A stretch of DNA of 64,000 bases from assembly GCA_965243025.1 (NCBI GenBank), contig CBDETY010000003.1, positions 64,001 through 128,000 on the forward strand. The letters are read 5' to 3'. Positions 23,473-59,851 of the stretch are shown here, piece after piece. Each line of letters opens with the position of its first letter. The stretch's first letter is position 1. Position numbers and translations under genes: made by a program. The notes beneath the pieces are model-generated. The model searched no databases. It was not told where the DNA came from and saw nothing but the letters and a program-made list of their open reading frames with translations. The DNA comes from Candidatus Latescibacterota bacterium (GTDB taxonomy: Bacteria > Latescibacterota > UBA2968 > UBA8231).

Positions 23473-25392
23473 TTACTTGAGCAGACTCATCCTCTTGGTA
23501 TCGGTATAGGACCCCGCCCGCATCTGATACAGGTAGACGCCGCTCGAAACAGGACGGCCGCTCGCATCGCGCCCGTCCCAGGTCGCGGTATAGAAGCCGG
23601 CGTTCATGACTTCGCCGTCAGCCAGCCGCACCACTTCCTGTCCGGCGGTGTTGTAGACCGTGAGGACCACTTCGCTGCGCTGGGGAATCTCGAAGCCCAG
23701 GGTGGTCATCGGGTTGAACGGGTTGGGGTAATTGTCGCCCAGCGAGAATTCCCCGGGGAGGCCGTCCCGCTGCTCTTCCACGACCGCCGTCGCCTCGCCG
23801 CCGATCATGCCCCGGCGGATTGCTCCGGGAGTGTGCACGAGCCAGCCCGGCTGCTCCTCGCTGTCCCACTCGTTCCTCGCGATCTGTTGCCTGTCGAAGA
23901 TGTGATCGAACCCCATCGAGTCGTAAAAGCCGTCGTAGTTGTTTCCGAACTCGTGGTACTGGATGCCCCCGTAGGTGAAATTGTTGGCGCCGTCGACTTT
24001 GAGCCGGGCCAGGCCGTTGCCGTCGGGGCCGATCACGAGTCCGATATACTGACTGAAGACACCCTGATCGCCGTTGGGACCGGTAAAGAACATGCCGTAC
24101 GGCCCGGCATTGATATTCTGCGAGGCTCGCCGCATGACGAGCTCGTTCCTGGTCTCCGGATCGTTGTCGTGGTCCCAGTCGATGGTGTCGCTCCAGCCGT
24201 CGCCGTTGTCGTTTATCCAGAGGACCTCGCTGTCGTGGGAGACGAAGGGGATCCAGGGATTGAAGTGGGTCACCGCGGCGACTCCTCTCGGGTTCAGCCC
24301 GGAGTCGACCGGCCCGTTGGACCAGGGAACCTCGTTCCCTTCGGCGTCGATTCTGACACCGGTGAAGACGTCGCCGAGGTCGATTGCGTGGAGGACCTCG
24401 CCGGTGGTCGGATCCAGCTTGATCACCGACGAAGTGAAGTCGGTCCTGTTCCAGCTGTCTACCCAGATGGCATCGTCGTACCAGTGGCAGTTGTAGACTC
24501 TCGACGGCAGCGGGAAATGACCGTTGTCGCCCCATTCGGTCACCGGCTCGACGGTTCCGTCATCCTTCATGAGGAGTTTGTGCACCCCCGTCGAAGGCCC
24601 CGAGAACATGGTTACGTAGACGGTGTTCTCCGCGGTCGGATCGAGCTGGATCCCGTTCGCCTGCAGAATCGCGTCCGGCTCGCCGCCCGCGTCGTTGACC
24701 GCCCTCATGTAGTCCGACGCATCGAATTGCTCGTAGGCGTCCGGGCTGGCCGCGTAGTCGGTGCCGATGAAGCTGCGGATTATCACCCTCTCCTCGAACC
24801 CCCTGCGGCCGTAGGGCGCCCAGACTTCCGGCGGGTCCTTCCTCCAGTCGATCGACCAGTCGCTCCAGGCGTCGTTGGCCACCCGGGCCACGGTGCGGGT
24901 GTTGTCGCCCCGGACGATGAGGTAGAACTGGTACTCCCCGGCCGCCACCGCGTCGCCGTCCATGTTGGTCCCGGGCCAGGTGATCGCATGCGAGCCGGCC
25001 CCGAAGTGAACCCCGTCCTGGGGCGTGCGCCACACCATGACATCGATGTTGGTGTTCTCGCCGCGGGCGATGGCACCCTCGGTGCCGTCCACCCATTCCT
25101 GCGCATCGTTGTCCCAGCGGCCGTCCGGTTTCCAGGCTACTGCCGGGGGATTGTACCCCGAAGTGTAGACGGCGGCGTACACCGTTGCGGGTTGGTCGAT
25201 CTCGAACGGAATGTCCACCGGCGTGCTGCCGTCGAACTCCGCCAACGCCTCCGGCACCGTCACCGAAATCGCTTCGGGCGGACCGCTGACCGTGGGGGTC
25301 CAGTTGGGTTCGTCGACGTCGTCCTGAGCCGATGCCGCGCCGGCCAGAGCGATGCATCCAGCTGCTGCGCAGACCGTTATCCATCTGGCCAT
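23473..25392 (-). CDS. Secreted protein: FlgD-Ig-like N-domain, probable beta-propeller, T9SS type-A/FlgD-like C-terminal sorting domain
   Basis: Signal peptide ending ASA-Q. C-terminal LGDNYPNPFNPMTT...WDGRDASGRPVSSGVYLY..TKRMSLLK. RBS aaggag is present. Confidence 0.8.
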   Translation of the reverse strand: MARWITVCAAAGCIALAGAASAQDDVDEPNWTPTVSGPPEAISVTVPEALAEFDGSTPVDIPFEIDQPATVYAAVYTSGYNPPAVAWKPDGRWDNDAQEWVDGTEGAIARGENTNIDVMVWRTPQDGVHFGAGSHAITWPGTNMDGDAVAAGEYQFYLIVRGDNTRTVARVANDAWSDWSIDWRKDPPEVWAPYGRRGFEERVIIRSFIGTDYAASPDAYEQFDASDYMRAVNDAGGEPDAILQANGIQLDPTAENTVYVTMFSGPSTGVHKLLMKDDGTVEPVTEWGDNGHFPLPSRVYNCHWYDDAIWVDSWNRTDFTSSVIKLDPTTGEVLHAIDLGDVFTGVRIDAEGNEVPWSNGPVDSGLNPRGVAAVTHFNPWIPFVSHDSEVLWINDNGDGWSDTIDWDHDNDPETRNELVMRRASQNINAGPYGMFFTGPNGDQGVFSQYIGLVIGPDGNGLARLKVDGANNFTYGGIQYHEFGNNYDGFYDSMGFDHIFDRQQIARNEWDSEEQPGWLVHTPGAIRRGMIGGEATAVVEEQRDGLPGEFSLGDNYPNPFNPMTTLGFEIPQRSEVVLTVYNTAGQEVVRLADGEVMNAGFYTATWDGRDASGRPVSSGVYLYQMRAGSYTDTKRMSLLK

Positions 25393-25459
25393 GGTACTCT
25401 CCTTTGTCGAAAGGAAGTGGGAGAAACACTCGATAAATGCCGAATGCTCGATGGAGCCC

Positions 25460-25545
25460 GATAATAGCCAATCTACCTGTCAAATCCAATAATAATCGAT
25501 TGCAATAATTGCTTGACACCCCACATGGGCACGTCCATCGTATTC
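25460..25545. promoter_or_regulatory. AT-rich divergent promoter region with LacI-type operator-like palindrome
   Basis: AATCGATT palindrome at 25494-25501 (taatcgattgca), between outward-facing TTGACA hexamers at 25513-25518 (+) and 25483-25478 (-). The -10 elements are not clear. Confidence 0.5.
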
Positions 25546-50845: not shown

Positions 50846-51850
50846 CTATTCCATCTCAAGGGAGGCCTTGATCCGCCCCCAGGAGACCGATTCGACCGCG
50901 GAGCCTTCCGGCTCGGTGTTGGCGGGCAGCAGGATGCCGTCGAGGAAAAAATCCGCTTGAACAAATATTATGTCGAAAATTGTGTCTAATTCCCTACCCT
51001 CGCCGGGATCAGTGGGCTCCATGGCTTCGGGGATCCACCAGGTCGGCGCCCTTTCGTTTTCGTCCCAGTCATTCACCATGATCGCAAAGCCGATCACTTG
51101 TCCCGGTGCCAGATCGCTGAATTCCGTCTCTTCTATCTCATCCCACGCTCCCCCCGAATCGTGCGGAGTGACATACAGCTCGATCACGCTGATGGTCGGC
51201 GCTTCCCCGAATGCGCCCCCGCCCGCATCTCCATACGGGGGAAACATTTTCCAGGAGAATCCCCGAGCCCCGTCAGGGGTATCGATCAGCGGCCCGGTGA
51301 CGGTGCGGGCAATCGCCTCATATCTCTGGGTTCGGCCGTATGCCTGCATTTGCTCCTCCTGGGTCGAAAAAAACGAAAATCCTTCCCCCCCACTGTGGTC
51401 TCCGTCGAATGCCAGAGTGATGCTGTCATGCATTTCGATGGAGCTTCGGCCCCCATCAGGAGCATCGTAGTCGTGATCGTTCCGATACAGATCATCGCTG
51501 GCTGCGAAGGCGACGTAGAGACGGTCCGGGTCGTCGTGCCAGGCCAGCCAGATCCGGAAGTCGAGGTTGGAGGGATCCGGAAGCATGTAGTTCGTGGGTG
51601 TCTTAAAATCCAGCAGGGTCATGGCCGGCTCGCCGATCAGCTCGAACCATTCGTCTAACATTCCGTCGTCGAGCTGGATCTGTTCCAGCATCTCGTCGGT
51701 CAGCTCGGCGATCGGGAAGACTCGACCGCCGCTGTGGGCGCCTGCCTGAGCAGGAAAGCAGGCGGACAGGGCCGACCCGACGAGCAGGCCGAGGGCCATG
51801 CGCCGGTGATTCCTGAGACATCCCGCACCATCTGGTTTCCTTCGGCTCAT
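50846..51850 (-). CDS. Secreted CBM9/DOMON-like protein with SWGRIK C-terminal tail, paralog 1
   Basis: Signal peptide ending AGA-H. DG..DEW, FRIWLAWH..RLYVAF..DD, DGDHSGG, IGFAI.V.D and AVESVSWGRIKASLE. Start is uncertain (51850 or 51799). Confidence 0.65.
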   Translation of the reverse strand: MSRRKPDGAGCLRNHRRMALGLLVGSALSACFPAQAGAHSGGRVFPIAELTDEMLEQIQLDDGMLDEWFELIGEPAMTLLDFKTPTNYMLPDPSNLDFRIWLAWHDDPDRLYVAFAASDDLYRNDHDYDAPDGGRSSIEMHDSITLAFDGDHSGGEGFSFFSTQEEQMQAYGRTQRYEAIARTVTGPLIDTPDGARGFSWKMFPPYGDAGGGAFGEAPTISVIELYVTPHDSGGAWDEIEETEFSDLAPGQVIGFAIMVNDWDENERAPTWWIPEAMEPTDPGEGRELDTIFDIIFVQADFFLDGILLPANTEPEGSAVESVSWGRIKASLEME

Positions 51851-51866
51851 GCCCGAGAGGACTGTC

Positions 51867-52751
51867 TTACTCCCGGCTGGAGACGAAACAGAGGCTCTCG
51901 CCGTCAGGCGACCAGGCCGGCTTCCAGTCTCCGTCATGCCCCGACGTCAACCGGGCGATACCGGTTCCATCCGCGGCCATGCGATATATGGAGGTCACCC
52001 CGTCCCGGTTGGAAACGAAGGCGATCTCTTTGCCGTCGCTGGACCACGTCGGCTGCCGGTCCAGGGCAGGGTGATCGGTGAGGTTGACGACCTGGCCGCT
52101 GGCCACCTCGAGGATGCAGATCTCGAAATTGCCGAACCGGTTGCTCTCGAAGACAATCAGGCTGCCGTCCGGGGACCAGGACGAGTGAGCGTCGAACCCC
52201 TCATTCAAAGTCAGGTTCCGCAGGTTCCGGCCGTGGTGGTCGGCGACATACAGCTCGAGATTGCCGTCGCGGTGGGTGGTGAAAGCGAGGTGTTGTCCAT
52301 CAGGCGAGAAGGCCGGCTGGATGGCGTCCGCCAGGATCGGTTCCAAAGCGGAGTCTCCGGCACGGAGCTTCATGACGTAGATGTCGTAGGACTCCGGCTC
52401 CTCTGTTTTTCCGGCGAAGGCGATCCGGGTGCCGTCGGGAAACCAGGAAACCCCTCCCACGCTGGTTATCCGCGGCGGTACCGGCATTCTCAGGAGTACC
52501 TCCCCGGCCCGGGAGGCGAGGTGGAACTCGTTCCCGTTTTCGGTGTGCGCGACGTACAAGAGCCGGCCGTCCGGGCCCCAACTCGGGGTGGACCGGCCCT
52601 CCGTCGGAGACAGGCGCTCGATGGAGGTTCCGTCCCGACCCATGCGAAAAACGCTCTCGACCTGAGTATGTGCGGCTTCTGGATTGGACCACTGCCAGAG
52701 GAGCGAAAAAAAGGACAGGCCAATCGTCAGTTTGCAAGGCATTTCAGTCAT
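51867..52751 (-). CDS. TolB-like PD40 beta-propeller protein
   Basis: Repeated P.WSPDG..I.F.S.R.G..(E/D)IY units and an N-terminal signal. Confidence 0.88.
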   Translation of the reverse strand: MTEMPCKLTIGLSFFSLLWQWSNPEAAHTQVESVFRMGRDGTSIERLSPTEGRSTPSWGPDGRLLYVAHTENGNEFHLASRAGEVLLRMPVPPRITSVGGVSWFPDGTRIAFAGKTEEPESYDIYVMKLRAGDSALEPILADAIQPAFSPDGQHLAFTTHRDGNLELYVADHHGRNLRNLTLNEGFDAHSSWSPDGSLIVFESNRFGNFEICILEVASGQVVNLTDHPALDRQPTWSSDGKEIAFVSNRDGVTSIYRMAADGTGIARLTSGHDGDWKPAWSPDGESLCFVSSRE

Positions 52752-52839
52752 AGGTCAGTCCCCTGAAGTGTGATTACGGAAGGGGGGGCGGTCGAGTTTG
52801 GGTAACCCGTCGAAGGCTCGATGGGGGGCATGACTTTGG

Positions 52840-53805
52840 TTACTCCATCTCCAGGGAGGCCTTGATCCGCCCCCAGGAAACCGACTCGACTGCGCTGTCT
52901 TCTCCCGGTTCGGCCGCGCCGGCCGGCAGCAGCAGCCCATCGAGGAAGTGCTCCGCCCGGTAACGGTACAGGATGTCTATTTCCGGGTCCTCACTCTGGA
53001 CTGCTTCAGGCCCCAAGAACCAACTGCCTTTGTCTTCGCTTTCCCCCACGAGGATCGCAAAGCCTATGACCTTTCCTGCCGTCAGATCGCTGACCACGAC
53101 GTCTTCAGGCCGACTGTCGCGTCCCTGCCAACTATCGTATGGAGTGAAGTACAGCTCGATTACCCTGATGGTCGGGTTTTCCCCGGCGACGCCACCGCCT
53201 GCGTCTGCGTAGGGAGGAAAGAACATCCAGGAATCCTCCGTGGTAACTACTGTGTACCCGCCACTCAAGCCGGACGTATGATAGCCATACAACGCAGTGC
53301 GGCCACTGGCAGTACGGGCAATTGCCCCGTATTGTTGCGATTCCCCCCAAAAATCCCACGTTTCGAAGGATTCCAAACGATTCCCACCGCCGCTGTGATC
53401 TCCGTCGATAGCCAGGATAAGATCATGATTATTATCATCCAGAATGTGCACGTCATCGCTGGCCGAGAAGGCCACATAGAGCCGATCCGGCTCATCGTGC
53501 CAGGCCAGCCAAATGCGGAAGTCCAGGTCAGATGGATCAGGTACCTCACCGAAGGCTCTGAAATCGACCAGGGACATGGTGGGTTCGCCGATCAGATCGA
53601 ACCACTCCTCCACCGAGCCGTCGTGAAGCTGGATCCCGGCCAGCATCTCGTCGGTCAACCCGGCGAACGGGAATAGTCGATTGCCTGCGTGGGCTTCTGC
53701 CCGGGCAGACAGGCCTGCCTGGGCAAACAGGCTCGCGGACACCGCCAGCAGCAGGAGCACGCTCAGAGCAGGGGGCACTTGCTTTTTCATGCGGATGCAG
53801 GTCAT
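52840..53805 (-). CDS. Secreted CBM9/DOMON-like SWGRIK protein, paralog 2
   Basis: Start re-called at MTCIRMKKQ. Leader nearly identical to paralogs 3 and 4, divergent core, same C-tail. Confidence 0.65.
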   Translation of the reverse strand: MTCIRMKKQVPPALSVLLLLAVSASLFAQAGLSARAEAHAGNRLFPFAGLTDEMLAGIQLHDGSVEEWFDLIGEPTMSLVDFRAFGEVPDPSDLDFRIWLAWHDEPDRLYVAFSASDDVHILDDNNHDLILAIDGDHSGGGNRLESFETWDFWGESQQYGAIARTASGRTALYGYHTSGLSGGYTVVTTEDSWMFFPPYADAGGGVAGENPTIRVIELYFTPYDSWQGRDSRPEDVVVSDLTAGKVIGFAILVGESEDKGSWFLGPEAVQSEDPEIDILYRYRAEHFLDGLLLPAGAAEPGEDSAVESVSWGRIKASLEME

Positions 53806-53857
53806 CTGTCTTTCTCCCTGTTCGCAGGTCACCATTGATGAGGAGATGGCGGTACGG

Positions 53858-54856
53858 CTACTCCATCTCCAGGGAGGCCTTGATCCGCCCCCAGGAGACC
53901 GACTCGGCCGCGGTGTCTTCCGGTCCGGCGCCGGCCGGCAGCAGGATGCCGTCGAGGAAAAAATCCGCTCGGGCATTACGTATGTCGACTTCCGTACGGA
54001 AACGAGGATCACTGGGCTGCATGGCTTCGGGGGTCCAGGACCACCCGATTGCCTCTTCTTCCTCGTCCCAGTCCTCCACCATGATCGCAAAGCCGATCAC
54101 CTGTCCCGCAGCCAGATCCGTGAACTCCGTCTCTTCGATCCCATCAAATGTCCCCCACCGGTCGTAGGGGGTGACATACAGCTCGATCACGCTGATGACC
54201 GGCGCTTCCCCGAAGACGCCCCCGCCCGCATCCCCGTACGGGGGAAACAGCTTCCAGGAGAACGCCCCCGTCCGACGTCCAACGTAGTTGTCCATGGTCG
54301 GTCCGCTGGCGGTGCGGGCGATGGCATCATATAGCTGCGCTTGCCCACTGGCTTCCATCAACTCCTCCTCTGTCGAAGTTGAGGTAGTTCCGGCGCCGCC
54401 ACCGTGATCCCCGTCGATGGTCAGAGTGATGCTGTCATGGTTCGGGATGTTCCTTCGTATGCCATACCCATCGTGGTCGTGATCGTTCCGGTACACATCA
54501 TCGCTGGCCACGAAGGCTACGTAGAAACGGTCCGGGTCGTCGTGCCAGGCCAGCCAGATGCGGAAGTCGAGGTCGGAGGGATCGGGTGGCAGGTAGTTGC
54601 TATGGGTCTGGAAATCCAGCAGGGTCATGGCCGGCTCGCCGATCAGCTCGATCCACTCGTCTATGCGGCCGTCGTGGAGCTGGATCTGTTCCAGCATTTC
54701 GTCGGTAAGCTCTGGAATGGGGTACACCCGCCCGCCGCTGTGGGCGTCTGCCCGGGCACACAGGCCTGCCTGGGCAAACAGGCTCGCCGTCACCGCCAGC
54801 AGCAGGAGTACGCTCAGCGCAGGGGGCACTTGCTTTTTCATGCGGATGCAGGTCAT
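53858..54856 (-). CDS. Secreted CBM9/DOMON-like SWGRIK protein, paralog 3
   Basis: 999-bp ORF from MTCIRMKKQ, near-identical to paralog 4. Confidence 0.65.
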   Translation of the reverse strand: MTCIRMKKQVPPALSVLLLLAVTASLFAQAGLCARADAHSGGRVYPIPELTDEMLEQIQLHDGRIDEWIELIGEPAMTLLDFQTHSNYLPPDPSDLDFRIWLAWHDDPDRFYVAFVASDDVYRNDHDHDGYGIRRNIPNHDSITLTIDGDHGGGAGTTSTSTEEELMEASGQAQLYDAIARTASGPTMDNYVGRRTGAFSWKLFPPYGDAGGGVFGEAPVISVIELYVTPYDRWGTFDGIEETEFTDLAAGQVIGFAIMVEDWDEEEEAIGWSWTPEAMQPSDPRFRTEVDIRNARADFFLDGILLPAGAGPEDTAAESVSWGRIKASLEME

Positions 54857-54911
54857 CTGTCTTTTCTCCCTGTTCGCAGGTCGCGGTTTGGATGAGGAGA
54901 TGGCGGTACGG

Positions 54912-55910
54912 CTACTCCATCTCGAGGGAGGCCTTGATCCGGCCCCAGGAGACCGACTCGACCGCGGTGTCTTCCGGTCCGGCGCCGGCCGGCAGCAGGA
55001 TGCCGTCGAGGAAAAAATCCGCTCGGGCATTACGTATGTCGACTTCCGTACCGAAACGAGGATCACTGGGCTGCATGGCTTCGGGGGTCCAGGACCACCC
55101 GATTGCCTCTTCTTCCTCGTCCCAGTCCTCCACCATGATCGCAAAGCCGATCACCTGTCCCGCAGCCAGGTCGGTTAACTCCGTCTCTTCGATCTCATCC
55201 CACGTCCCCCACCGGTCGTAGGGGGTGACATACAGCTCGATCACGCTGATGACCGGCGCTTCCCCGAAGACGCCCCCGCCCGCATCCCCGTACGGGGGAA
55301 ACAGCTTCCAGGAGAACGCCCCCGTCCGACGTCCAACGTAGTTGTCCATGGTCGGTCCGCTGGCGGTGCGGGCGATGGCATCATATCGCTGCGCTTGCCC
55401 ACGGGCTTCCATCAACTCCTCCTCTGTCGAAGTTGAGGTAGTTCCGGCGCCGCCGCCGTGATCCCCGTCGATGGTCAGAGTGATGCTGTCATGGTTCGGG
55501 ATGTTCCTTCGTATGCCATACCCATCGTGGTCGTGATCGTTCCGGTACACATCATCGCTGGCCACGAAGGCTACGTAGAAACGGTCCGGGTCGTCGTGCC
55601 AGGCCAGCCAGATGCGGAAGTCGAGGTCGGAGGGATCGGGTGGCAGGTAGTTGCTATGGGTCTGGAAATCCAGCAGGGTCATGGCCGGCTCGCCGATCAG
55701 CTCGATCCACTCGTCTATGCGGCCGTCGTGGAGCTGGATCTGTTCCAGCATTTCGTCGGTAAGCTCTGGAATGGGGTACACCCGCCCGCCGCTGTGGGCG
55801 TCTGCCCGGGCACACAGGCCTGCCTGGGCAAACAGGCTCGCGGACACCGCCAGCAGCAGGAGTACGCTCAGCGCAGGGGACACCTGCTTTTTCATGCGGA
55901 TGCAGGTCAT
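54912..55910 (-). CDS. Secreted CBM9/DOMON-like SWGRIK protein, paralog 4
   Basis: 999-bp ORF with RBS aaggag. Offset from paralog 3 by 1054 bp. Confidence 0.65.
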   Translation of the reverse strand: MTCIRMKKQVSPALSVLLLLAVSASLFAQAGLCARADAHSGGRVYPIPELTDEMLEQIQLHDGRIDEWIELIGEPAMTLLDFQTHSNYLPPDPSDLDFRIWLAWHDDPDRFYVAFVASDDVYRNDHDHDGYGIRRNIPNHDSITLTIDGDHGGGAGTTSTSTEEELMEARGQAQRYDAIARTASGPTMDNYVGRRTGAFSWKLFPPYGDAGGGVFGEAPVISVIELYVTPYDRWGTWDEIEETELTDLAAGQVIGFAIMVEDWDEEEEAIGWSWTPEAMQPSDPRFGTEVDIRNARADFFLDGILLPAGAGPEDTAVESVSWGRIKASLEME

Positions 55911-55960
55911 CTGTCTTTTCTCCTTTTTGTTTCCCTCCAAACGAAATCGGCGTATGCGCG

Positions 55961-55999
55961 GTGCCCCAACGCCCCCAATGGTCAAGGGCGTTGGGGCAC
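55961..55999 (-). terminator. 14-bp perfect stem-loop downstream of the small peptide gene
   Basis: gtgccccaacgccc / gggcgttggggcac. A second small hairpin gcaggg..ccctgc lies at 56012-56030. No U-tract. Confidence 0.55.
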
Positions 56000-56034
56000 T
56001 CTTCAGCCGGGCGCAGGGTTCGGGGCCCTGCCGG

Positions 56035-56259
56035 TCAGTCGCTGCAGCTGCAGTCGCCGGTGTCGCAGTTCCAGCTGTAACTGTCGTGGTTCACGAGTGC
56101 GCACTCGTATGCGCACATGTTGGCGGTGCTCGTCGTCTGCTCGTGCGACGACTCATACCAGGACAGGGGCGGGGAGTGCGCGTCCGTCAAGGACGCACCG
56201 CCCAGCAGGAGCCCTGCCCCCAGCAGGACGGCGACGATGTACTTCGCAAGATGCGACAT
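56035..56259 (-). CDS. Small secreted Cys-rich peptide with CS-alpha-beta (defensin-like) spacing
   Basis: RBS aaggagg, signal peptide ending TDA-H, and a mature part with C-x3-C-x11-C-x4-C-x-C. Confidence 0.7.
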   Translation of the reverse strand: MSHLAKYIVAVLLGAGLLLGGASLTDAHSPPLSWYESSHEQTTSTANMCAYECALVNHDSYSWNCDTGDCSCSD

Positions 56260-56318
56260 GCTGCCTCCTTTGTGTTCGGGGTTAGCGCCTGTCGCTACCC
56301 CGTTTCATCCAGAAGACA

Positions 56319-56334
56319 TGCAAATGCCGTGCCG
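56319..56334 (-). promoter_or_regulatory. Sigma54 (-24/-12) promoter
   Basis: Minus strand reads CGGCACGGCATTTGCA (GG-N10-GC; consensus TGGCACG-N4-TTGCA), 60 bp upstream of the peptide ATG and next to a sigma54 activator gene. Confidence 0.8.
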
Positions 56335-56467
56335 GTACCGGGCCGGCGGCTCCATCGGTGCTGTCCGTGACGACGTAACCTGTTATTTTCATGGTGGTTA
56401 TTACACCACATTTTTTTATTTTCGGCACAATCAGCTCCCGCGGCGCCGCCATCGGCTTCTCGGTCTC

Positions 56468-56527
56468 GTCGTATTTAATACGATTCGGCCGTATTTAATA
56501 CGACTTGGCCGTATTTAATACGACTTC
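56468..56527. repeat. Three tandem 20-bp units each carrying the palindrome CGTATT-T-AATACG (candidate enhancer/UAS)
   Basis: cgtatttaatacga at 56470, 56490 and 56510. Confidence 0.9.
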
Positions 56528-56635
56528 CCCGATAGCCGCGGCCGACGGCTGGTTGCTCCTGCTTTCGTTCTTCCTTATTGGTACGGTTCTGTGGATAACA
56601 ACCCACCTTGCCCCACAAAGAAAACGGATTCGAAA

Positions 56636-59600
56636 ATGAACGAGGCACGCGAACCCCATTCCCCATCCACCCGGGTCGAGGGTGGGGGGGTGGCTTTCGA
56701 CCATATCCTCGGGCGCCAGTACACGGTCTTCGACGGGCTGGCCGGGATGCACGTGGAAGACATCTACCAAGACCGCCGGGGGCTCCTCTGGATCGCCACC
56801 GCCGACGGCGGGGTCAGCCGCTTCGACGGGGCCCGGTTCGAGACCTTCGGCCCCTCGAACGGGCTTCCCCATCTCAACGCGATGACCATTGCCGAAGACG
56901 AGGGCGGGCGCCTGTTGTTCGGCACTCTCGGGGGCGGGCTGGCCGCTTTCGACGGGCAGGGGTTTCAGGTGTACACCACCGCGGACGGACTGCCCTCCAA
57001 CGACATATTGAGCCTGCACCCCCGGGCGGACGGCTCGGTACAGGTGCTGACCGGGAACGGGATCGCCCGCTTTGTCGAGGGGCGGTGTCTGGAGCCGCTG
57101 ACGGACGTGGCCGGCCAATCCCTCGGAGCGGTGTACGACATGGCTACCGACGCGGCGGGTACGACGTGGCTGGCGTCGCGGGAGCGGGGGATCATCGACC
57201 TGGAAGGTCAGTCCATGAACGGGCATCCGGGCACCGGGGAAACAGCTATGCAATGGCCCTGGAAGTTCGCCCCGGACGCCTCCGGCGGTCTGTGGATCGC
57301 CTTCCGGTACGTGGGCAGCGAAGCCGTTGTCGGCCGTTACGACCCCGAGCGCCGGCAGCTCGACCTGATCGAGGTGGACCACGAGGTCGAGAGCGGCGAA
57401 GTGGTCCAGCACGGCACGCGGCATGTGCGCCAGGACGACAGGGGCTGGCTGTGGATGAGCCGCCGGGGGGTCCTGGTGTACGACGGGCAGGCCTGGCATT
57501 CGTTTTCCGCCCGCTTGCAGGGCACCCATTTCTCGGACACGCGGCTGACCTGCGAGGACCGCGAGGGCAACATCTGGATAGGACTGTGGGGCGGCGGGCT
57601 GCTCTTCTGCGATCCGGTCAGCGTGCAGTTGTACACGGAAGCCGACGGTTTGCCCGACAACGAGGTCCAGTGCCTGGACGAAGACGGGCGGGGTCGGCTG
57701 TGGATCGGGACCATGGGGGGCCTGGCCTGCCGGGAAGAGGACCGCATCCGTACGGTCAATGCCGGGCAAATGGTTTCGGCGCTGGCGGCAGACGGCCCCG
57801 GGCCGGTTTGGAGCGGAAGCCCGGAGGGCAAGGTATTCAAGTGGACGGGAAAAGAATCCCGAGCGATCGAGGTGGCCGAAACCGGCTCCGGGGAAGAGAT
57901 CACGGCCCTGTGCGCGGACGGCCGCGGGCATGTATGGGCCGGCACCTCCCGGGGGCGCCTGGGGCGGGTGGAAGCCGACCGGTTCAACCCGGTGGCTGAG
58001 GAGCTGCCCCATGAGTGCAGCGCCGTGCTGCCGGCCCGGGACGGTGTCTTATGGGTCGGCACCGGGGGGCCCGCCCCGGCGCTTTACCGGTACGAGGATG
58101 GCCGCTTCCAGCCGCCCTCCCTGGCCGGCCTGGAGGCCGTATCCGAAGTGACGGCCTTGTGCGAGCACCAGGGCCACCTCTGGGTGGGCACGGCCAACAG
58201 CGGCCTGTTCGCCCTGGATTTCTCCGCGCAGGAGATTCGCCGGTTTACCGTGGACCGGGGGGACTTGTCGGTAAACGGCATTCTCTGTCTGGTGGCCGAC
58301 CCGGAGCAGGACTGCCTGTGGGTCGGCACGAGCGGCGGCGGGGTGCTGAGGTACGACGGGCATGCGTTCCAGACCATCCGCCTGGGGAACGCCGGCCTGG
58401 AGAACGTGGTCGAGGCCATCCTGATCGACAGCGATGACAGCCTGTGGTTCGGGACCCGGGCGGGTCTCGTCGCGTACCACCCCGGCCAGGTGCCGCCTGC
58501 CCTGGCGATCGGGCGGGTCGAGGCCGGGCGTCTCTTCAAGGCCCCCCGGGCCGTGACCTGCAAGGAAAGCACCCGCGAGGTTCTGATCGAGTTCCAGGGC
58601 ATCAGTTTCAGAACCGGGGCGGAGCAACTGCGTTACAGCCACCGCCTGGCCGGTCATGCCCCGGCGGAAGCCTGGAGCGAATTCACCTCCGCCAATTCTG
58701 TTTCGTTTTCCGGTCTGCCGGCCGGCCGGTTCTGCTTCGAGGTGCGGACCATGGACCGGGACCGCTTGATTTCGGAAGCGGTCAGCCTGGAGGTGCAGGT
58801 GGTTGCGGAGAAGCAAAGCGCGCCCGGTTCGGCCCTGGAGCATATGCCGTGGACCTCTCGGGAGGACATGCTCAGAAACAGTCCGGTCATGTCCCGGGTC
58901 CTGAAACTGGCCGAACAGGTGGCCGGGACCGGGATGACGGTGCTGATTCTGGGGGAGACCGGGGTGGGCAAGGGGGTGCTCGCCGAACACATTCACGCCG
59001 CGAGCTCGCGCCGGGGGCATCCCTTTGTACCGGTCAACTGCGGTGGCCTGCCCCCGGGGTTGGTTGAAAGCGAACTGTTCGGGCACGAAAAGGGCGCCTT
59101 CACCAACGCGGTGGAACGGAAGAAAGGCCGGTTCGAACAGGCGCACGAGGGCACCCTGTTCCTCGATGAAATAGGCGACCTGCCCTTGGAGGCTCAAGGG
59201 GTCCTGCTTCACATCCTGGAGGATCGACACCTATTACGCGTCGGCGGGGAGACGCCCGTCCCGGTGGATTTCAGGGTGGTTGCGGCCACCAACCGGGATT
59301 TGAAAGAGGCCATCACCAAAGGGGATTTCCGGGAAGACCTGTTCCACCGCCTGAACGTGTTCCCGGTGAAAATCCCGCCTCTGCGGGATCGGGGGGAGGA
59401 AATACCGTTCCTCGCCGCCTACTTCGCGAGCCGGTTTGCCGGCGAGTTGGGGCGGCCGGTGCCGTCTCTGAGCTCCGAGGTGTTGAGGCACTTCCAGGAG
59501 TATCCCTGGCCGGGTAACGTGCGCGAGCTGGAGCACGTGATGCAGCGGGCGGTGCTCGTGTGCCGGGATCACGTCGTGCAGCTGGAGGATGGGCTTCCTG

Positions 59601-59851
59601 ATGAAGACCTGTACTGGGATGATGGGTCTGCTTCGTCGCCTGCGTCGGCTCCGCCGGTCGACCCAGGGGAAGGAACCGAAGCCGGCACGGTCTTCAAGTC
59701 CGAAGAGCAACAAATCCTGGAAGCCCTCCAGGCAACCGAAGGGGTCGTATATGGGCCGAAAGGCGCGGCTGTCTTGTTGGGCATGAATCCGGAGCGGTTG
59801 CGTTCCCGCCTGCGGGTGTACGGGTTGGAAAAACCAAAGAAACAGTCTTGA
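56636..59851 (+). CDS. Sigma54-dependent activator with N-terminal two-component-regulator propeller repeats and Y_Y_Y-like domain
   Basis: DGL...V..I..D..G.LWI.T..GG repeats, then [54 protein letters not shown] and a C-terminal HTH. Start could be 56591. Confidence 0.9.

Follow-up and report, generated by a model that had tools for sequence, protein, structure and literature searches.

In the PEP-CTERM/PrsK-PrsR system, dispersed genes for secreted proteins encode a shared short C-terminal signal, and the activator site and sigma-54 promoter common to these genes are served by a dedicated Fis-type enhancer-binding protein, as set out in the available text of Haft et al. 2006 (PMC1569441). 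Here we describe a locus for which this system, judged on that text, is the closest described one in logic, while sensor, tail and cargo all differ. The locus lies in a stretch of 64,000 nucleotides (G000:C3:64001-128000, below called the window) from an uncultured Latescibacterota-like bacterium. It consists of a gene for a sigma-54 activator with a beta-propeller sensor on the + strand and, divergent from it on the - strand, genes for a cysteine-containing peptide, for four paralogous secreted proteins with a common C-terminal tail (P1 to P4) and for a secreted PD40 propeller. Our conclusion, to which we assign a probability of roughly 0.7, is that the locus is one copy of a multi-copy sigma-54 control cassette in which paralogous propeller activators drive secreted cargo. 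The regulatory reading is well supported; what we infer beyond it is what the cargo does, which signal acts as inducer and how the tail works.

The activator can be compared with three kinds of known regulator. With bacterial enhancer-binding proteins of the NtrC/NifA type it shares the AAA+ Sigma54_activat domain and lid, Walker A and B, a GAFT-type loop, a putative C-terminal Fis-type helix-turn-helix (HTH), tandem upstream palindromes and a -24/-12 promoter. However, it lacks their receiver, GAF, PAS or V4R sensor and has a double propeller of about 700 residues plus Y_Y_Y instead, and its loop reads GAFTNA. With the Bacteroides hybrid two-component systems (HTCS; sensor structures 3v9f, 4a2l and 3ott) it shares Reg_prop repeats and Y_Y_Y. 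There the sensor is periplasmic and the output consists of kinase, receiver and AraC domains, whereas the activator has a sensor predicted to be cytoplasmic and an AAA+ sigma-54 domain as output. PrsR, finally, is a response regulator, whereas this activator is a one-component propeller protein. A text search of the literature returned no paper joining an HTCS-type propeller sensor with sigma-54 activators.

The cargo also has described relatives. Cis-defensins follow the framework C...CX3C...C...CXC (PMC5234102; PMC11561630), and 74 bacterial members from three phyla, all with a GXC motif, are reported in the available text of Cardoso et al. 2024 (PMC11561630). The peptide resembles the bacterial members, as presented there, in its signal peptide, unstructured N-terminal stretch, helix CX3C, GXC, last-strand CXC and predicted alpha-beta-beta topology. 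It differs in having four invariant cysteines only, a His-rich N-terminal stretch and a rare family, and its phylum is outside the three named in that text, the supplementary tables of which could list a member. The paralogs share a predicted beta-sandwich with CBM9 (1i82, 7nwn) and DOMON domains. In contrast to CBM9 they stand alone with about 300 residues, start after predicted cleavage with an invariant His, carry DGDHSGG and the C-terminal tail, and number at least 68 copies in one genome. The tail resembles type IX secretion C-terminal domains in its place after a linker and in a preceding [ST][AV]V[EQ]. Such a domain is Ig-like and covers about 80 residues, whereas the tail covers about 15-33 (a 12-residue motif and 3-21 trailing residues) and is without the xYPNPFN and the closing K-x-x-L-L-K of the 57 ordinary type IX domains of this genome. 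PEP-CTERM has a transmembrane helix and a basic cluster; the tail has neither, and the residues trailing its motif are mostly polar.

A repeated cassette of palindromes, promoter and activator

The genome has a size of 6.8 Mb and 65% G+C (window 66%). The palindrome core GTATT[TA]AATAC occurs 15 times genome-wide, in every case within one of six arrays (C3:120470, in this window, followed by 494218, 503563, 3001967, 3135106 and 3929436; loci A to F), with two to four GTATTWAATAC palindromes per locus. After each array we find a GGAAGCCGGTGGCG-like block, an A-tract, AAAAYAACAGGTTAYG, a GG-N10-GC box and a shared leader, TGGGTGAAC-GGGGTAGCG-AACA-GGCGCGACCCC-GAAAACAAAGGAGG. Five full-length propeller-AAA+ paralogs are encoded in the genome and two of them adjoin these arrays, i.e. 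the activator of the window and a second one at C3:500237, between loci B and C, which is 83% identical (885/1069) with a near-identical HTH. No activator-like open reading frame (ORF) of at least 700 aa was present at loci D, E and F within the 12-kb stretches examined. The genome has one rpoN gene (Sigma54_DBD match 1.1e-59) and two genes of the HU/IHF family (IHF, integration host factor).

In the window, three exact copies of CGTATTTAATACG start at 56470, 56490 and 56510. Allowing up to two mismatches, six strand-wise matches were counted against 0.18 expected, and none of 100 shuffles reached six. Measured from their centres, the palindromes precede the -24 GG by 143, 163 and 183 bp and the activator ATG by 120-160 bp. 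A+T makes up 76% of the tract 56381-56422, between palindromes and promoter (window, 66% G+C), and the block at this place resembles an IHF site: AAAAYAACAGGTTAYG fits eight of the nine specified positions of the IHF consensus in most cassette copies. GGCACGGCATTTGC at 56320-56333 (-) is the sole exact GGCACG-N4-TTGC in the window, and the usual 12-nt rule predicts a transcription start site near 56308.

For comparison we used 19 related activator loci from public metagenome-assembled genomes, mostly labelled Latescibacterota or Gemmatimonadota. Three GTATTWAATAC stand beside the activator gene in five of the 19 (L008-L012, 62-89% identity). In L009-L012 (62-63% identity) the palindromes are found downstream of the activator gene with 21-bp spacing. 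At L012 an AT-rich stretch, TGGTACGAAATATGC, a gene for a large protein, and genes for PD40 and WD40 proteins with SWGRIK-type tails come next; the large protein scores 25.7 bits with the CHU_C type IX secretion domain, a weak match below the cut-off of 27. In the sister genome G079 all three close homologs (77-90% identity) stand beside palindromes and GGCACG-N4-TTGC and adjoin tailed-paralog arrays of 3, 2 and at least 7. Palindromes, a sigma-54-type promoter and the activator are kept together beyond this genome, both in a sister species and in genera with other cargo. The first-pass annotation of this DNA had expected homologous activators to keep a Cys peptide and tailed genes as neighbours. 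This was borne out by same-genus homologs, which keep palindromes, promoter, peptide and tailed paralogs, whereas distant homologs keep palindromes, promoter and tailed proteins without this peptide and this paralog family; the paralog-family profile has no match in the loci of distant relatives. The exact tandem array was found in three of the 41 searched genomes of the family (at five loci in G000, once in G079 and in two overlapping places in G101), so its multiplication is recent.

Other activator paralogs are accompanied by variant arrays of triple palindromes, e.g. CGTGGAGTTCCACG three times at L025 and CGTAT-N4-ATACG palindromes at L005, each array then followed by a TGGCAC-type box. 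The L005 activator, the third paralog in the genome, has a divergent promoter of like design but with CGTATGGACATACG and CGTATGCGGATACG. The HTH sequence ERLRSR[LM]RV[YF] is present in all six array-linked activators with a readable C-terminus, and none of the nine activators with EKLRYR has the array.

Pfam matches of the activator are Reg_prop (PF07494, 3.6e-38), Sigma54_activat (PF00158, 3e-65), AAA_lid_14 and, weakly, Y_Y_Y (PF07495, 1.2e-3), with no kinase, receiver or AraC domain among them. In sequence comparisons with the PDB, the N-terminus matches the HTCS sensor structures 3v9f (5.6e-37), 4a2l (3.4e-31) and 3ott (1.3e-19), and the central region matches NifA, FlrA, NtrC1 and others. 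The Walker A (GETGVGK) and Walker B region (LFLDEIGDL) are intact. No signal peptide was found and the highest 19-residue Kyte-Doolittle mean is 1.28, i.e. no membrane helix by this crude measure, so the propeller sensor domain is expected to be cytoplasmic. The ATG at 56636 is the likely start rather than the GTG at 56591 of the longest ORF, since the resulting length of 1071 aa equals that of a 98%-identical homolog (P0121). Among the 25 of 29 matched NCBIfam families that were listed, the activator scores below every equivalog cut-off; the best score was obtained with NorR (312.6, cut-off 476), and PEP_resp_reg (TIGR02915) gave 281.4 against a cut-off of 502.6. Homologs are numerous (2263 matches at E <=0.001 among 8000 scored), PF07494 and PF00158 occur together in 114 of the best 120, and the only homolog names listed are 'sigma 54-interacting transcriptional regulator', 'AAA domain-containing protein' and 'hypothetical protein'.

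The first propellers of the two array-linked activators (56636-57700 and G000:C3:502400-503430) share near-identical long runs, the C-terminal third being more diverged, which suggests a recent duplication or gene conversion of the sensor.

In our model the soluble activator would, presumably, bind a cytoplasmic signal through its double propeller/Y_Y_Y domain. The CGTATT-W-AATACG palindromes, which follow one another at two helical turns, would be the targets of its Fis-type HTH, an IHF-like site would bend the DNA between palindromes and promoter, and the AAA+ domain would remodel the sigma-54 holoenzyme. The sequences show the anatomy, that it is repeated and that it is conserved; the binding of the activator to these sites and the role of IHF are what we infer. 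The activator and its 83%-identical paralog would between them turn on six or more loci. Their cargo would be a cis-defensin-like peptide exported through Sec, CBM9/DOMON-like proteins in tandem and a PD40 propeller at two of the loci. The tail would act as a sorting or anchoring signal for the paralogs, and the cargo may be surface or secreted proteins with which the bacterium meets a host or competitors.

The leader element GGGGTAGCG-AACA-GGCGCGACCCC recurs at the corresponding position of 10 other cassettes. A hairpin with eight predicted pairs can form in it, and it may be an RNA hairpin or a DNA site. An Rfam search of 55800-56700 gave a single row at chance level (E 0.23) and no family for the leader or the hairpins. 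When sequences are folded singly, the C/T-rich stretch that follows the -12 box pairs with the Shine-Dalgarno sequence; this outer helix was set aside because the stretch should be upstream of the expected start. Interpretation of the palindromes as mobile-element ends was also dropped, as the arrays keep the same register upstream of the promoter and stand beside regulators. A simple scan of the intergenic region for sigma-70 promoters found no promoter-like site and cannot exclude one for the activator.

The secreted cargo and its tail

P1 and P2 share 323 of their 332 residues, which points to a recent tandem duplication; other pairs of paralogs are 61-71% identical, and all four end in SVSWGRIKASLEME. 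The start codons were corrected to 55910 (P1), 54856 (P2), 53805 (P3) and 51850 (P4). The number of homologs is 754 at E <=0.001, of which the best 120 are listed without Pfam domain or name, and the paralog-family profile matched 117 ORFs in the genome. Foldseek aligned the model of P4 to the CBM9 structures 7nwn (5.4e-7), 7nwo (1.3e-6) and 1i82 (1.8e-6), followed by haem-binding DOMON-like subunits of nitrite oxidoreductase and ethylbenzene dehydrogenase, and the nearest ESM clusters of the paralogs carry PF06452. We therefore describe the paralogs as secreted proteins with a predicted CBM9/DOMON-like fold, which may bind sugar. The PD40 protein scores 169.8 against TolB (TIGR02800, cut-off 343.15), matching in the propeller part only, and a PD40 propeller gene is found at two of the cassette loci.

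A His directly follows the predicted cleavage site in 30/30 aligned paralogs, which also conserve DGDHSGG. It is the first mature residue in the peptide family and in several unrelated tailed families as well; in the window these sites are at 55797 (P1), 56178 (peptide) and 52670 (PD40). With signal peptides placed by a crude rule, [AS]H comes after the hydrophobic region in 29 of 38 tailed ORFs and in 43 of 555 others, counts that are not independent because the tailed ORFs are mostly kin. The first mature His may be a processing or metal-binding feature.

The tail was searched for in 84,010 ORFs of at least 40 aa from the whole genome. The motif [ST]WG[RQKA][IVLM]K occurs 82 times, always within 21 residues of the C-terminus and in 74 cases within 12, and three permuted motifs occur once each in the same set. 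The 82 tailed ORFs form 13 clusters, one of 68 CBM9-like members and twelve unrelated ones with 14 members. In the paralogs the consensus is [ST]AVE-xx-[ST]WG[RQ][IL]K. The [ST][AV]V[EQ] part is located exactly six residues before the tail in 53 of the 82, and 17-20 residues before 10 of the 57 ordinary type IX secretion domains (background, 15 of 3000 windows). Being strictly C-terminal in 82 ORFs of 13 clusters, the tail is suggested to be a sorting or anchoring signal. The genome has type IX machinery (two PorU-like genes and SprA) next to the 57 ordinary C-terminal domains compared, so the tail appears to be a separate and much shorter ending; the paralogs gave no NCBIfam or Pfam match to a type IX secretion C-terminal domain. 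Across 81 sampled genomes of the phylum the tail is patchy, with 68 and 55 copies in the genus, 23, 12, 10 and 7 elsewhere and none in most genomes (reversed control, 0-1). No paper containing the motif was found in a text search, which gave one unrelated virus paper and had most subscription journals outside its scope. A 668-aa ORF with an ordinary type IX domain (NYPNPFNP…KRMSLLK) at 23473-25479 (-) of the window coexists with the tail.

The peptide precursor has a signal peptide ending in TDA with cleavage before HS, a His-rich N-terminal stretch, CAYEC and then G-D-C-S-C. Its family gave 12 matches at E <=0.001 among 1.84 billion representatives. The alignment has cleavage between A and H[SG], WxHxH, the invariant CX3C (CAYEC), a conserved His and the final G-x-C-x-C; four cysteines are invariant, the first and fourth framework cysteines are found in some members only, and His follows the predicted cleavage site in 12 of 13 peptides. 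A profile search against PDB sequences returned only brazzein/defensin-like chains (E 1.4-8, not significant), and this prompted modelling. In the AlphaFold2 model residues 41-74 have a predicted local distance difference test score (pLDDT) of 75-85, with a helix at 46-55 that includes CX3C, a strand at 60-64 and a last strand at 69-73 that includes GXCXC. The root mean square deviation from cysteine-stabilised (CS-alpha-beta) folds is about 1.5-3.8 Å, at best 1.5 Å over 36 of 38 residues. In view of framework and predicted fold, both cis-defensin-like, the label 'defensin-like' is reasonable.

Nine peptide-family ORFs, some of them degenerate, were found in G000, each directly upstream of a tailed CBM9-like gene. 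At locus F (L004:8973-9261, i.e. G000:C3:3928973-3929261) the peptide gene is split over two frames, as after a frameshift, and the cassette and the downstream paralog are intact. A hairpin follows the peptide gene at loci A, B and E; the one in the window has no clear U-tract, and with hairpins at the equivalent place in B and E it may serve as an attenuator or 3' stabiliser. A predicted complex of mature P1 and mature peptide scored 0.02 (mark, 0.32), which speaks neither for nor against binding.

Part of the cargo is wired differently. Peptide-plus-paralog pairs at C3:458208, 3346059, 6066803 and 4338412 follow three to five tandem TCACCYGATCRGGTGA palindromes with 23-24 bp spacing. These palindromes lie just downstream of genes for a NarL-type regulator (Response_reg and GerE) and a PAS-HisKA_3 kinase, and no -24/-12 box was found at these four loci. 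The TCACCYGATCRGGTGA arrays span G000:C3:458105-458215, 460630-460670, 3345853-3345915, 3348098-3348185 and 4338307-4338370 (L044-L046). At C3:458000 only a remnant of the NarL-type regulator gene is left.

Weighing the readings

In the first-pass annotation the locus was described as a membrane-less activator with propeller and AAA+ domains, divergent from a -24/-12 unit, together with a triple palindromic site about 135-190 bp upstream of the box, an AT-rich tract between the two, a secreted defensin-like Cys peptide, a hairpin after its gene, an amplified array of secreted paralogs and a PD40 propeller. Every one of these features was recovered at its coordinates. The annotation further regarded the locus as a single self-contained inducible module and complete regulon, with the activator serving the divergent unit only. 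Such a view is suggested by the divergent genes with the palindromes between them, and by activator and array being usually adjacent in relatives. However, the core array recurs with promoter and leader at five further loci, no activator was seen at D, E and F in the 12-kb stretches examined, a second activator with near-identical HTH sits between loci B and C, and other cargo copies are under NarL-type regulators. With the cassette at six loci and two 83%-identical activators on one site the module is not self-contained, and we consider the single-module view very unlikely. There is also only a slim chance that the arrays are operators of another DNA-binding protein, or relics of segmental duplication, with the neighbouring activator acting elsewhere. 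The cassettes are indeed paralogous copies, and the different palindrome arrays at NarL-type regulators mean that tandem palindromes are not sigma-54-specific in this genome; yet the array adjoins the activator in other genera despite changed cargo and gene order, paralogous activators have array variants of their own, and the distance of 143-183 bp from -24 and the 20-bp phasing fit an enhancer.

Two further alternatives concern the cargo. Peptide and DOMON/CBM9-like proteins could bind copper, zinc or haem rather than act as defensin and lectins. N-terminal His forms copper 'histidine braces' in lytic polysaccharide monooxygenases and CopC, and a first mature His is found in all 30 paralogs and in nearly all peptides; WxHxH, four to six cysteines with an odd count common in the family, the DGDHSGG of the paralogs, and the haem-binding proteins among the fold neighbours of P4 agree with metal handling. 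Nevertheless the unit encodes no transporter, chaperone or sensor for metals, sugar-binding CBM9 modules head the fold matches, the CX3C/GXCXC spacing and predicted topology of the peptide are those of disulfide-stabilised defensins, and [AS]H, found after the signal peptide of other tailed families too, may have to do with export or processing; a metal-handling role is in our view unlikely. That the tail does no more than complete the CBM9-like domain as its final structural element, and is no sorting or anchoring signal, we regard as quite improbable. One lineage does dominate the count, with 68 of 82 tailed ORFs from one family, but the other 14 belong to twelve unrelated clusters, the tail ends the PD40 and WD40 proteins of L012 while the PD40 protein of the window is without it, it follows a Pro/Glu/Gly-rich linker and is modelled at a pLDDT of about 30, and its preceding motif is shared with type IX domains well above background.

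The reading as a multi-copy control cassette has points against it as well. The sigma-54 contact loop of the activator is GAFTNA, not GAFTGA; loops in the family are GAFTGA (55), GAFTSA (42), GAFTNA (6), GAFTDA (3), GSFTGA (2) and GSFTSA (1), so that position 5 varies, and the Phe-Thr is retained in the activator. Pfam HTH_8 (PF02954) was not reported in the activator at E 0.01; it is precomputed on many homologs, with whose C-termini that of the activator aligns. L006 and L026b have the same recognition helix and yet no exact array nearby. With one mismatch allowed, GGCACG-N4-TTGC occurs three times in the window against 6.9 expected, i.e. without enrichment, so the weight of the box rests on its position and its recurrence in other cassettes; its -26 base is C instead of T. 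No compensatory changes were seen in the leader hairpin across 11 cassettes. The cassettes are paralogous duplicates, so shared descent explains part of their similarity. On the cargo side, most members of the peptide family have five cysteines instead of six, and the structure matches of the peptide, mostly CS-alpha-beta toxins and defensins, are not significant with Foldseek (E >=2.4) or VIA (Z <=3.6; 2.0-3.4 for the toxins and defensins). The four paralogs gave no Pfam match at E 0.01, neither CBM9 (PF06452) nor any other family, their profile returned only a chance row from PDB sequences, and the model of P4 is moderately confident (pLDDT 59, predicted TM-score 0.65). The public runs containing this DNA include a sponge metatranscriptome. 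In one metatranscriptome run, contigs overlap the peptide gene (56028-56244, with 2 differences), the paralogs and the PD40 gene. The hint of expression is weak, since contigs tell neither start nor strand nor level and the library may contain DNA. They leave most of the activator uncovered, a contig gap that proves nothing.

With a putative DNA site, promoter, activator and target set readable from sequence, the cassette would be a tractable system in an uncultured lineage, and its specificity is directly testable because the site co-varies with the activator paralogs. Sigma-54 activators with a cytoplasmic HTCS-type propeller sensor would form a numerous yet unstudied class, the cargo bears on how such bacteria meet a host or competitors, and the peptide family comes from a phylum outside those reported in the available text of PMC11561630. 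Should the tail prove to be a sorting signal, there would be a secretion or anchoring route still to discover. A bolder interpretation, which we offer tentatively and do not expect to hold in full, is that the tail, often paired with a first mature His, marks the cargo of an undescribed sorting or anchoring pathway of this phylum, parallel to type IX, and that the propeller activators are a new one-component sigma-54 class which deploys such cargo, with the phylum's first defensin-like peptides among it, on a host or community signal.

Feature coordinates and further observations

Coordinates of the features are collected in Table 1. The order on the - strand is peptide, hairpin, P1, P2, P3, PD40 gene and P4.

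Table 1. Features of the locus, in window positions
Feature	Positions	Strand	Remarks
Activator gene	56636..59851	+	1071 aa from ATG 56636; Reg_prop/Y_Y_Y sensor, AAA+, AAA lid, putative Fis-type HTH
Putative enhancer (upstream activating sequence), three CGTATTTAATACG palindromes	56470..56522	no strand	20 bp start to start
A-rich tract and conserved block AAAATAACAGGTTACG (AAAACAACAGGTTACG in other cassettes), IHF-site-like	56374..56422	-	
-24/-12 box CGGCACGGCATTTGCA	56320..56335	-	sequence match, position, recurrence
Conserved leader element GGGGTAGCG-ACAG-GCGCTAACCCC	56278..56301	-	immediately 5' of Shine-Dalgarno sequence
Secreted peptide precursor, 74 aa, cis-defensin-like	56035..56259	-	
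GC-rich hairpin 3' of peptide gene	55961..55999	-	14-nt perfect arms, up to 18 pairs
Paralog P1, 332 aa, CBM9/DOMON-like, tail TAVESVSWGRIKASLEME	54912..55910	-	His directly after predicted cleavage site
Paralog P2, 332 aa	53858..54856	-	323/332 residues as in P1
Paralog P3, 321 aa	52840..53805	-	64-65% identity to P1 and P2
PD40 (TolB-type) beta-propeller, secreted, 294 aa, without tail	51867..52751	-	PD40 E 6.9e-43
Paralog P4, 334 aa	50846..51850	-	copy modelled; predicted fold matches CBM9

The downstream neighbours, an Fe-type alcohol dehydrogenase (ADH), a Lar_N protein and a Zn-ADH, look metabolic and are apparently unrelated. Contigs of the runs X2-X4 contain joints that skip one or two paralog copies (window 53409-55552 and 51698-52840). 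This could be copy-number variation of the array; the joint sides, at less than 30 letters, are unreliable and were not used. The divergent operon of the third propeller activator (L005:1186-4387, i.e. G000:C3:2825186-2828387) encodes a CxxC protein without Pfam match, a Peptidase_A24-like membrane protein and a 157-aa protein ending in CFCS, and it also holds a truncated CBM9-like gene beside a transposase-like ORF.

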